Source: a virus
IMG/VR virus record: IMGVR_UViG_3300027970_000012
Span: 27,445-91,444 of that record
Reading direction: 5' to 3' (one strand)
Length of the DNA stretch: 64,000 nt
Shown here: positions 4,216 to 8,022 of the stretch, piece after piece
Layout of the letters: each line of letters opens with the position of its first letter
Numbering within the stretch: position 1 is the stretch's first letter
Position numbers and translations under genes: made by a program
The notes under the pieces: model-generated
The model's input: the letters and a program-made list of their open reading frames with translations, nothing else
Databases searched by the model: none
Told to the model about the DNA's origin: nothing

Positions 4216-4914
4216 TTATGTCAAGTGATTGAGGTTGATAAATGACAACACATCCTCAATTGGTAAAATATCAGTAAGATGTTCGGTCATTCCCCGACCC
4301 ATGCTCATTTCAGTTAATGGTGACTTGTATTGAGAAAACTCCTTCAAAACTTTCTTTTCTAAATTCCATATATCTATAGATTTTCCTGACCACTCTCCAA
4401 TAAGCTCAGACGTTTCCTTTTTACGATATAGCCAACCTTTATATGACCTACCTATTTTATAATTACCATTGTGAAGTTTTATAAAGTAAAGTTTATCTGG
4501 TCTCTCATTATCTTTTGGTCTCTGAAATCCAGACCAAGGTTGCCCATTAGCTGTTATTCTTTTTCTTGCTTGGGAATACTTCTCAAGTGTTTCCTTACTA
4601 TATGGAGTTGAATTTTTTACTCCTTCGGGTCTCCCACCAACTCCAGGACACTTTTTACCCTTGTTCCAGGGTGATTTTTGGTGAGCAGGATTATTTTTTC
4701 CAAGTTTTGCCTTTCTACCACAACAAGTTTTACTGGTCTTCATACCGCAAACTAGTATTTCTCGTTCACCAGAACATTCACAATATACCTTTATCCTTTC
4801 TCTTTTTGTATGAGTTCTATTTTCGCCCCTATATTCCAATTTCCTATTTTCACAAAGCTTATTTAGTATATCAAATGTGTAAGTTCCTTTCATAAAACTC
4901 TCATAAGTTTCCAC
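4216..4914 (-). CDS. Free-standing putative homing endonuclease (NUMOD-like motifs plus C-terminal GIY-YIG-like/T5orf172-type domain); likely start ATG 4893
   Basis: SPWNKGKK and YSKETLEKYS motifs; LYFIK..YKIGRS..LEKKVLKEF..GMTE; late promoter directly upstream. Confidence 0.7.
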   Translation of the reverse strand: METYESFMKGTYTFDILNKLCENRKLEYRGENRTHTKRERIKVYCECSGEREILVCGMKTSKTCCGRKAKLGKNNPAHQKSPWNKGKKCPGVGGRPEGVKNSTPYSKETLEKYSQARKRITANGQPWSGFQRPKDNERPDKLYFIKLHNGNYKIGRSYKGWLYRKKETSELIGEWSGKSIDIWNLEKKVLKEFSQYKSPLTEMSMGRGMTEHLTDILPIEDVLSFINLNHLT

Positions 4915-4925: not shown

Positions 4926-4950
4926 TAAAAGGAGCCCACGTGGGCTCCTT
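4925..4950 (-). terminator. Rho-independent terminator after psbA
   Basis: Palindrome AAGGAGCCCACGTGGGCTCCTT running into a T tract on the - strand. Confidence 0.8.
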
Positions 4951-4957
4951 ATGAGCA

Positions 4958-7131
4958 TTACCCAATTGCTGGAGCAGTAAGGGCAATAGAGGTTTCCTTG
5001 GTCATAGCAAGGTCTAAAGGAAAATTATGGGCATTCTTATATTTCTTTAGGTTTCTGGTATTACTACCAGGATTGGACTATATCATCATCATTTCTGATG
5101 CCGGACGCTTAAACCTGTTATTAAGAAAACTATATTCCTCAGGTAGTCTCTGAACCTTTCTTAGATGTATCTAAGACTTGGCTGCTGATTACCCACTTAG
5201 GGTTTCCAGCAATTCATCCGATTTAAAGAGCGCAATACCCAAATCTACGCTCGTGCATAACTTCCAGTCCCAAGTTTGCCCGATTAAGAACATCAGCCCA
5301 GGTATTAATAACGCGGCCCTGATGGTCTAAAATACTCTGATTGAAATTTAGTCCGTTCAAATTGAACCCAGACATAAAAATACCAGCAGCGGCAAACCAT
5401 ATCCCGATGACAGGTAGAGCAGCCATTACAAAATGCAGTGAACGACTATTGTTAAACGATGCATATTGAAACAATAATCTCCCCAGATATCCATGTGCGG
5501 AAACTAAATTATAAGTTTCCTGCTCCTGTCCGAACTTATAACCATAGTTCTGGCTCTCATTCTCTGTTGTTTCTCTAACAAGAGAGCTAGTGACCAATGA
5601 ACCATGAACTGAACTGACCAGGGCTCCCCCGAATACACCAATAACTCCAAGTTGATGAAACGGATTCATAAGAATATTATGTTCAGCCTGAACACTTTAC
5701 CCAAACTTTCGTAAGGGAGTGGACTATATCATCACCCCATAATGGGGGCAGGGCGCTTATTCTGGTTATTAAGAGGACTAAACCTCTCCAGTAGTCTCTG
5801 AACCTTTTGGAGGTGTACCTCCAACTTGGATGCTGATTTCCATATTATATTGTTCTTTTAAAAATTGAATAAATTGTTCTTTTGTATTATTACCATACCC
5901 ATATTTATTGTGAAATTCTTTATGAATTTGCTTTGTTAAAAGAATTCCATTAGTAATATCATATCTTAAATCTGGATATGCGTTCCAACCATATAAATGG
6001 TGGACCACTAAATCTTTTTTAGACCCGGTGACGCAACAATAACGTCCAACTCTTTTCCTGACGGCGTTTATCCAAATATAATAATCTGTTGAGGGATTAT
6101 GAAAATCTCTACTTAATGTACCTTTGAAAGCTGGGTGATGTTTTCCATATACACCTTTCAAAGAACCTTTTCGCCCAGTTGCCTTTTTACTTAATTTTTG
6201 TCTAGTTTGTACAGAAACAAATTTATTAGTATGCAATTCAGAAATTCTTTTCTTTTTGCAATGTGGGCAACCTGTTTTAGGTGAGTTTTTATAAGACGCT
6301 AAAGATGTTTCAAATTCATTATTACAAGTAAAACAAAGAAACTTTATTTTACTTTTAACGCAAGTATACCCGTCCATAGAAATTAATTTATGATTTCTAG
6401 ATTCGGCAATATTTTGAATATGCTCAAAAGAAAGTGGTTTACTCATTTAATATCATACTAACATATTTTATTTATATTAGCACAATATTGAAAGACTGCA
6501 AATATAACTTAGGGTTCCAGCAGTTCACCCTATTTAGCCAAGGAAATTACTTTCCAGGAGTGCCTCAAACTGACACTAACATAAAATTAAATTGACCAGA
6601 AATTCCTAGAGGAAATCCATCAGAAAACGAACCTTGTGAAATAGGATAGGCTAGAAAAATTGCAGTTGCAGCAGCTACGGGAGCAGAATATGCAACAAAA
6701 ATAAATGGACGCATTCCCAATCGGTATGATAATTCCCATTCACGACCCATATAAGCATAAATGGCAATCATAAAATGGAAAACAATGAGCTGATATTCAC
6801 CACCATTATAAAGCCATTCATCAAGAGACTGTGCTTCCCAGATTGGATATAGATGCAATCCAATAGCATTGGAACTAGGAATTATGGATGCTGTAATTAT
6901 ATTATTTCCATACATTAAAGAGCCAGAGACCGCCTCCCTAATACCATCCAAATCAGTTGGTGGTGCGGCAATGAACCCCAAAATAAAGCAAGTAGTAGCA
7001 ACTAAAGCTGTCGGAATCATCAGAACTCCAAACCAACCGATATACAATCTATTATCAGTTGAGGTTATCCAGGAACAAAATCGTTCCCAGAGATTTTCGC
7101 CAGAACGGCGTGTAGCAATTGTAGAAGTCAT
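4958..7131 (-). CDS. psbA: Photosystem II D1 protein, three exons (7131-6573, 5692-5247, 5035-4958), 360 aa after splicing
   Basis: Joined exons total 1083 nt in frame and restore NFMLV-F-QAEHNIL and [15 protein letters not shown]. Confidence 0.97.
5036..5246 (-). mobile_element. Group I intron, 211 nt, no ORF, between D1 codons R334 and N335
   Basis: Exon ends in U, intron ends in G; P1 GAGCGU/GCGCUC; P10 UGGGUAUU/AAUGCCCA; core AAUUGCUGGAAA, AAUCAGCAG, GUUCAGAGACUA, GAUAUAGUCC. Confidence 0.93.
5778..6446 (-). CDS. Intron-encoded HNH homing endonuclease (Zn ribbon, NUMOD3-like, HNH)
   Basis: CFTC..CPHC; [12 protein letters not shown]; [21 protein letters not shown]; 3' end reads through the intron core. 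Confidence 0.9.
   Translation of the reverse strand: MSKPLSFEHIQNIAESRNHKLISMDGYTCVKSKIKFLCFTCNNEFETSLASYKNSPKTGCPHCKKKRISELHTNKFVSVQTRQKLSKKATGRKGSLKGVYGKHHPAFKGTLSRDFHNPSTDYYIWINAVRKRVGRYCCVTGSKKDLVVHHLYGWNAYPDLRYDITNGILLTKQIHKEFHNKYGYGNNTKEQFIQFLKEQYNMEISIQVGGTPPKGSETTGEV
6469..6476 (-). promoter_or_regulatory. T4-type late promoter inside the intron
   Basis: Exact TATAAATA 22 nt upstream of the HNH ATG. Confidence 0.75.
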
Positions 7132-7142
7132 AAGTTAACAAG

Positions 7143-7246
7143 TAAAATGTGTTCAGGGGAATGAACAATACAGTATTTTCACGCTACCCTCAGGCGTGAA
7201 TATGAGAGACGTATTTGAATTGCTCATAAGTCTCGGTGAAGCAATA
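7143..7246 (-). ncRNA. PhotoRC-II-like structured psbA leader RNA
   Basis: ACCGAGAC..GTCTCTCATA..GAGGG..TTCCCCTGA pattern; stems ATTGCT/AGCAAT, TTCACGC/GCGTGAA, TGTTCA/TGAACA; loops complementary (GAGAC/GTCTC, AGGG/CCCT). Confidence 0.7.
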
Positions 7247-7270
7247 GAAGCCTTTGTCAGCCTTCCAACA

Positions 7271-7305
7271 TATTTATACTAGCAGATGTTACGTTTTGTT
7301 ACAAT
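7271..7305 (-). promoter_or_regulatory. psbA composite promoter: sigma70, T4 late and HLR1-like direct repeat
   Basis: TTGTAA-N17-TAGTAT overlapping TATAAATA (7271-7278); GTTACGTT-TT-GTTACAAT at 7288-7305 on the + strand. Confidence 0.65.
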
Positions 7306-7317
7306 GAGTAGAATTAC

Positions 7318-8022
7318 TCAGTCCTTCCGCAACCGATAAGGAATTGTGATTTCCTGCCATCTATTTTCTATTAGATTCAAGTATGAATCTTTACTACAGG
7401 TTCCCCAAGGATAATATCCCAATGACCATCCATCATTCACTTCTACTAAAAGCAAATCTGCATCTTTAGTATGACCAACATCAAGACTATACCCAATGGG
7501 AGAATCTTTGTAATCTTGAACAATTTGATTCACTTTAGATACATCAATTGTATCATTCGGGCCATCATCATACTGTGAGTATCCTAAAATTTTATTTTCA
7601 AGAACATAAAATCTAAATTCAGAGGTGAATTCTACTGGGTCAGATACCCACACTGAAGTGTCTGAATGTATTTCTAACTCTAATTCAGACTTAATATCTC
7701 CAGTAAAAGATTTATTTTCTTTTGGTTTAACGAAAAGATGGTCTTCTACTTCTCCAAATACAGAACTCCAAACATTTCGGTTTAAGTATTTCTGTAAAGA
7801 CTTTGGATAGTTGATTGGCTTAGGGCAGGTAATGTTCATTACTTCAAAATACTTCTGAACATACTCAACCGAGCCAATGGGTATGGGTAGATATTCCCCG
7901 ATGGATTTTGCATCCAAATCTTCATAAGAAATATAAGAGAAGCTATCACTTGCACTAGAAATAACTACAAATTTTTCTGTGGGTAATATATCTCCTGGCT
8001 GTAAAATATAACTAGACATCAT
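7318..8022 (-). CDS. ATP-grasp protein (DUF4343/R2K-like)
   Basis: GSVEY, YPKSLQKYLNR, FVKP..K.FTG, SEFRFYV, YSLDVG, LVEVNDGWSLGYY. Confidence 0.8.
   Translation of the reverse strand: MMSSYILQPGDILPTEKFVVISSASDSFSYISYEDLDAKSIGEYLPIPIGSVEYVQKYFEVMNITCPKPINYPKSLQKYLNRNVWSSVFGEVEDHLFVKPKENKSFTGDIKSELELEIHSDTSVWVSDPVEFTSEFRFYVLENKILGYSQYDDGPNDTIDVSKVNQIVQDYKDSPIGYSLDVGHTKDADLLLVEVNDGWSLGYYPWGTCSKDSYLNLIENRWQEITIPYRLRKD

Follow-up and report, generated by a model that had tools for sequence, protein, structure and literature searches.

The window, a 64,000-nt stretch of an IMG/VR virus record, carries on its minus strand a psbA gene with three exons and two introns, as delineated from open reading frames (ORFs), reading of the sequence and joining of the exons. 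The gene spans positions 4958–7131, exactly the coordinates given in an earlier sequence-only reading, and runs from an ATG at 7131 to a stop codon at 4960–4958 (minus strand). With the predicted splicing, the joined exons form a single 1,083-nt frame for a D1 protein of 360 amino acids, and exon 3 encodes a 15-residue C-terminal extension beyond A344 (standard D1 numbering is used throughout; this is the window residue index minus 1). The two large exons match the Photo_RC family (PF00124) with 161 and 113 bits, above the curated cut-off, and D1 chains in the PDB with E values of 8e-101 (exon 1) and 5e-78 (exon 2).

Table 1. Features of the psbA locus in the window
Feature	Position	Strand	Evidence
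PhotoRC-II RNA motif in the psbA 5′ leader	7165..7259	-	Rfam RF01717, 61.9 bits against a gathering score of 39
psbA exon 1, to V185 and the first base of the F186 codon	6573..7131	-	PF00124, PDB D1 chains
Intron 1, group I-like, 880 nt, within codon F186	5693..6572	-	RF00028 partial match, exon junction
HNH endonuclease ORF, 222 amino acids, within intron 1	5778..6446	-	Pfam HNH_2, PHROG 1271
psbA exon 2, remainder of F186 to R334, with the QB pocket and helix E	5247..5692	-	Exon joining
Intron 2, group I without an ORF, 211 nt, between R334 and N335	5036..5246	-	RF00028
psbA exon 3, N335 to the stop codon	4958..5035	-	Exon joining
Putative terminator-like hairpin followed by a T run, directly after the psbA stop	4927..4948	-	Sequence reading

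Both junctions are in frame and restore exactly the residues found in intronless relatives. Intron 2 passes the group I threshold (RF00028, 90.5 bits against a gathering score of 50). The 3′ part of intron 1 scores 32.7 bits (E = 2.6e-6), below the same gathering score, with the ORF interrupting the fold; its insertion site is common to two other contigs (L223 and L307). The ORF within it matches HNH_2 (22.5 bits against a cut-off of 21) and the PHROG 1271 HNH endonucleases (E = 8e-11). As predicted from sequence, psbA is intact, is split by a group I-like intron and a group I intron and encodes the photosystem II protein D1 (PsbA).

In this set of freshwater phages, psbA is an intron hot-spot (related contigs and S-SRM01: L223, L302–L304, L307, L311, L315, L318 and L322–L324), and across these contigs the gene is interrupted at about D1 residues 61/62, 83–93, 108–115, 184–187, 251/252 and 334/335. 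The core of intron 2 (5062–5223) is seemingly common to many other elements in the lake: its summed contig depth in lake runs reaches 939 compared with about 55 for the exons, and assemblies break there. Directly downstream of psbA, a 232-amino-acid ORF (4216–4914, minus strand) occupies the position of the free-standing endonuclease F-CphI in S-PM2; searches of Pfam and PHROG gave no match for it. Between psbA and the sliding-clamp gene (gp45) is an R2K-type ATP-grasp ORF (7318–8022, minus strand; Pfam R2K_2, E = 8e-31).

Few known proteins are as strongly conserved as D1. We compared the window D1 with 183 distinct D1 sequences sampled around the query: those of IMG/VR phage contigs, 12 named phages, 43 Cyanobiaceae and 76 other cyanobacteria. 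The residues that the sequence-only reading had listed as kept are all present in the spliced protein (16 of 16). They comprise the Mn4CaO5 ligands D170, E189, H332, E333, H337, D342 and A344, which mark a water-oxidising (G4) D1; YZ (Y161) with H190; the P680 ligand H198; the iron ligands H215 and H272; the QB partners H215, S264 and H252; and D61 and E130. The protein departs from the consensus of the 183 sequences at 72 sites, and 39 of its residues each occur in fewer than 2% of the set; it thus lacks invariant residues of standard G4 D1, which include P66, P111, G164, M172, T179, H195, M214, I248, L275, T292 and M293. At 16 of the 39 sites the comparison set is invariant (P66, P111, L120, G122, W142, V157, G164, T179, H195, A213, M214, I248, A250, L275, T292 and M293). 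All 26 substitutions noted earlier as unusual are present; that description suits 23 of them, M172F included, but not C144F, T286A and F93L, which are common in phages (51, 38 and 17 of the 183 sequences, respectively). Sixteen rare changes come in addition to that list: L41A, A43V, A51G, I60L, A81S, A100Q, L120M, G122A, V157I, V160A, A250S, I259L, L288A, S309H, A345M and S348E.

Rogue D1 and ChlF are devoid of Mn ligands. The exclusion of both (G1–G2) in the sequence-only reading is upheld because every Mn and Ca ligand is intact in the window D1. A hint in the same reading of a microaerobic D1′ (G3), for which the triad is G80A, F158L and T286A (PMC2776144), does not hold: the window D1 has G80A and T286A but retains F158 and so lacks the full triad, T286A is a common phage residue, and G80A occurs in only 62% of the 41 distinct related proteins that share T179Q (hereafter, the T179Q group). 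We also rejected a far-red D1, as its markers F119Y and A154T are absent and F119 and A154, the standard positions of the far-red residues Tyr120 and Thr155 that adjoin ChlD1 (PMC12121499), are kept in all 41 members. A contact of L120M with ChlD1 by analogy with far-red Tyr120 was discarded as well, given that Tyr120 corresponds to standard F119 (PMC12121499), which is kept here. The window D1 matches no named D1 isoform.

The loss of oxidisable residues proposed earlier is modest: the protein has 8 tryptophans compared with about 10, 10 methionines compared with about 12 and 2 cysteines compared with about 4, and histidine is unchanged. With a net difference of about two for each of the first three and none for histidine, we rejected such loss as an explanation of the pattern.

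Phage psbA is usually host-like, with identities of up to about 95% to host or other phage D1 (PMC2776144). The window gene falls short of this: the closest of 512 deposited phage psbA records has 77% identity in exon 1 and 80% in exon 2, and the closest cellular genome among the matches listed has 78% and 84%, respectively. Nearer relatives, at 84–89% identity, come from IMG/VR. The DNA motif that encodes F172...Q179 occurs in 10 IMG/VR viral contigs and 14 metagenome contigs, and related proteins form clusters of 25, 27 and 85 members, whose contigs reach 282 kb. The exon-1 ORF of the window has an exact protein match on 12 contigs; contigs that span 5161–7300 with zero differences are present in two further lake runs, and a run from a different study contains an identical piece of 483 nt. 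The recurrence of identical sequence in further lake runs and on 12 contigs rules out an assembly artefact. The stretch occurs in runs that are metagenomes of lake water or fresh water. The phage is T4-like (gp45, gp46/47 and UvsW are present), and its UvsW has about 60% identity to that of the closest cultured phage, the freshwater S-SRM01.

We constructed a phylogenetic tree (IQ-TREE) of 64 representative D1 sequences. All D1 with an altered QB region form one clade (30 sequences; SH-aLRT 96), and every named phage and every sampled cellular D1 falls outside it. Nested within are the T179Q group (18 sequences; SH-aLRT 97) and, inside that, the group of the window (13 sequences; SH-aLRT 97). 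The V274–M275 motif of the QB region was found in 0 of 401 cyanobacterial genomes. The clade support, the position of named phages and sampled cellular D1 outside the clade, and the motif count bear out the proposal of a distinct viral D1 class; provisionally, on the sequences gathered here, this D1 lineage appears to be known so far only from viral and metagenome contigs. A literature search that covered sources other than subscription journals returned no description of this D1 type.

Phage psbA normally resembles host genes (PMC2776144), which raises the question of whether phages took this D1 type from a cyanobacterial host in fresh water that is missing from the sampled genomes, so that its odd residues would be host features rather than viral innovations. 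Two cellular D1 paralogues, from Nostoc sp. MG11 (L083) and a Chroococcales MAG (L084), also share a few of the QB-site changes. We consider such a copy unlikely, however, given that the QB-region motif is missing from the 401 cyanobacterial genomes, that cellular identity among the matches listed is at best 84% (exon 2) and 78% (exon 1), that the sampled cellular D1 sequences all branch outside the clade, and that every member with genomic context lies on a viral or large phage-sized contig. The two paralogues carry F211V/I, F255L and F274V in an otherwise ordinary D1, and their likeness at the QB site may be convergence.

The degenerate primers in common use for psbA (psbA-F and psbA-R; PMC5083919, Table 1 of that study) fit the window gene poorly. 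The psbA-F site (6933–6958) has five mismatches, one of them at the base before the 3′ end, and the psbA-R site (5036–5256) spans the insertion site of intron 2. PCR surveys of lakes may, as a result of this mismatch, have missed the lineage.

Within the group of the window, dN/dS is 0.04–0.14, with a few pairs up to 0.27, at dS of 0.3–1.9 (Nei–Gojobori). The median of 0.078 compares with 0.067 in named phages, 0.062 in ordinary IMG/VR D1 and 0.099 in Cyanobiaceae. The gene is under purifying selection and is not decaying. Conservation, counted over the 41 distinct proteins of the T179Q group, follows three patterns: 17 of the rare changes persist in 80% of members or more, 13 further ones vary, mostly between two derived states, and 9 are private to the window D1 (A203I, A213S and M214V among them). 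H195 is replaced by N or S and is never H, M214 is mostly T, and W142F is nearly private to the window (5 of the 40 other members). The ligands that we checked are invariant or nearly so, and conservation extends to L218, V219, A251, F265 and L271 in the QB site.

These data bear on whether the substitutions arose by neutral drift in an auxiliary gene that the phage can dispense with, under relaxed selection or in decay. Many of the changes do lie at otherwise invariant sites, and the window D1, with its nine private changes, has the longest end branch of its group (0.15). Relaxed selection, which the sequence-only reading had put forward as an alternative, is nevertheless contradicted by a median dN/dS on par with that of ordinary phage D1. 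The frame is open through three exons, the ligands are kept in all or nearly all of the 41 members, and the derived residues stay fixed although synonymous sites are near saturation; drift of this kind is accordingly among the least credible of the explanations considered here.

Three groups within the QB-altered clade carry different sets of changes, so that four blocks of changes can be told apart: a block in the lumenal N-terminal part (V58T, I60L, P66A, A81S, A100Q and P111E); a block on the ChlD1/YZ side (L120M, G122A, V157I, V160A, G164S, M172F, T179Q and H195N/S); a QB-pocket block (S209A, F211V/I, M214V/T, I248L, A250S, F255L, I259L, F274V, L275M and W278L/F); and a helix E block (L288A/C, S291F, T292M, M293S and A294G). 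One small group of the clade (P0021 type) has lumenal and QB changes only, and another, long-branched group (P0027 type) has mainly QB changes. The latter (P0027, P0028, P0032, P0036, P0054, P0056 and P0061) constitutes a second metagenomic D1 group, on a stem of length 0.45. It shares the QB block, is ordinary on the ChlD1 side and strongly altered throughout its N-terminal half, and is represented by clusters of 18–36 members on contigs of up to 147 kb.

Several D1 sequences are mosaics that combine the ChlD1-side block with an ordinary QB region (P0020, P0177, L315, L319, L323 and L324, and likewise P0178 and P0135). In P0020 and P0177, residues 111–197 have 99% identity to the window D1, and residues 198–286 have 98% identity to ordinary phage D1; the same block pattern recurs in the four L-numbered sequences. 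The mosaic genes indicate that the blocks recombine in nature, possibly through co-conversion during intron homing.

It could be argued that intron homing also produced the changes themselves, as a by-product either of escape of the target site from the nuclease or of co-conversion of flanking exon tracts. The psbA of this lineage is split at at least six different sites, and the occurrence of mosaics fits such a process. The changes are spread through the whole protein rather than centred on the two insertion sites, however, and homing, although able to rearrange blocks, neither creates them nor fixes them under purifying selection. Escape from homing nucleases, also raised in the sequence-only reading, offers no explanation because intronless members bear the same changes. 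We judge an origin of the changes in homing to be very improbable.

The nearest known systems are the psbA genes of ordinary T4-like cyanomyoviruses (S-PM2, S-CRM01, S-T4 and S-SRM01), which are the same gene in the same genomic role with the same PhotoRC-II leader. The window D1 resembles ordinary cyanophage D1 in carrying E130, the D1:2-like form, and S-PM2 has an ORF-less psbA group I intron at the same R334/N335 site. It differs in its identity of at most 76–80% to those proteins and in its 39 rare residues; the D1 of S-SRM01 has ordinary residues in all four blocks. In S-CBWM1 and S-SRM01, psbA is likewise split more than once, by at least two group I introns, one with a homing endonuclease ORF, but the endonuclease-bearing intron lies at about residue 218 (S-CBWM1) or about residues 90–98 (S-SRM01) instead of 185/186, and the encoded D1 is ordinary, unlike that of the window.

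Cyanobacterial cells exchange one D1 for another (PsbA2/D1′, PsbA3/D1:2 and far-red D1) and in this way alter residues that adjoin ChlD1, PheoD1 and PD1. The isoform changes include M172L and C144P (PsbA2), T286A, Q130E and, in far-red D1, Leu in place of M172 (PMC12107152, PMC12121499). The window D1 combines M172F and T179Q with a rebuilt QB wall, and none of those isoforms has such a wall. Herbicide-resistance mutants of the QB niche are altered at residues 211, 219, 251, 255, 264 and 275, of which F211, F255 and L275 are changed in the window as well; compared with these mutants, the window set is natural, multi-site and conserved in a virus, and the classical positions S264, V219 and A251 are unchanged.

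Cofactor contacts for the altered sites were taken from the literature on ordinary D1. The side chain of M172 is directed at ChlD1 from a distance of 3.8 Å, T286 hydrogen-bonds PD1, and M172L and C144P retune the ChlD1–PheoD1 state in PsbA2 (PMC12107152). A hydrogen bond links T179 to the axial water of ChlD1, and the ChlD1 spectrum is shifted in T179H (PMC10498673). The hydrophobic QB niche consists of F211, L218, F255, F265, L271, F274 and L275 (PMC8398153), with F255 the largest contributor to binding of the QB head group and F211 to that of the tail (PMC4030317). Since polar anchors are kept and part of the walls is replaced at both sites, we infer a retuned primary donor and QB site. Judging from the positions of the changes, quinone exchange may be altered.

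We consider it likely that this psbA works as an auxiliary gene in an uncultured T4-like cyanophage of fresh water, and that it specifies a full D1 of a virus lineage with presumably retuned ChlD1 and QB sites. Both introns would splice out to give the complete protein, which most probably takes the place of host D1 in the photosystem II of infected cells and pairs with the D2 of the host. The lineage has retained the water-oxidising site together with YZ, the P680 ligand, the ligands of the non-haem iron and the hydrogen-bond partners of QB. It has replaced residues, and then fixed the replacements, in the surroundings of ChlD1 (T179Q, M172F, V157I, V160A, G164S and H195N/S, together with S291F, T292M, M293S and A294G of helix E) and the hydrophobic wall of QB (F211V/I, M214V/T, I248L, F255L, F274V, L275M and W278L). 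These changes may shift the site energy of ChlD1 or its axial-water network, and the binding or redox poise of QB, and such shifts could adjust charge separation and recombination to the needs of a D1 that has to endure until the end of infection without host repair.

No psbD was found in the 91-kb record of the window or in five related viral records (10–125 kb), all of which are fragments that are 6–58% complete, and S-SRM01 lacks psbD as well. The viral records being fragmentary, psbD may sit elsewhere in these genomes; should its absence hold, the variant D1 must pair with host D2. Chlorophyll a/b-binding (hli) families were also not found in the 91-kb record, and neither were AOX/PTOX families, although the PTOX control itself gave no match anywhere.

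Replacement of five residues of the hydrophobic QB wall, F255 included, could alternatively signify a D1 of altered function that shuts down or diverts photosystem II, for example, through a QB site that binds poorly. The Mn4CaO5 ligands, the YZ/H190 pair and the QB partners H215, S264 and H252 are conserved in all or nearly all members, however, as are L218, V219, A251, F265 and L271. Conservation of this kind is to be expected only where water oxidation and quinone reduction are still of use, and we give a shutdown or diversion of photosystem II as little credence as neutral drift.

Beyond the working, retuned D1 that we favour, a more far-reaching proposal is tentative and, in our estimation, somewhat doubtful. 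Freshwater cyanophages may have evolved a reaction-centre subunit of their own, in which Gln179 replaces the threonine–water link to ChlD1, perhaps as a direct ligand of the Mg, and the QB wall is rebuilt. Photosystem II of infected cells would then be altered in trap energy, recombination route and quinone handling, and the blocks responsible would be exchanged between phages. If this is true, such a photosystem II might have a longer life or a lower propensity to form singlet oxygen.

A selected natural lineage that alters normally conserved D1 sites and keeps the catalytic residues provides ready-made variants for questions about the tuning of the primary donor and the QB site, and the natural mosaics separate the ChlD1 and QB pockets. 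For phage ecology, the lineage indicates that an auxiliary metabolic gene can evolve far from any host form.
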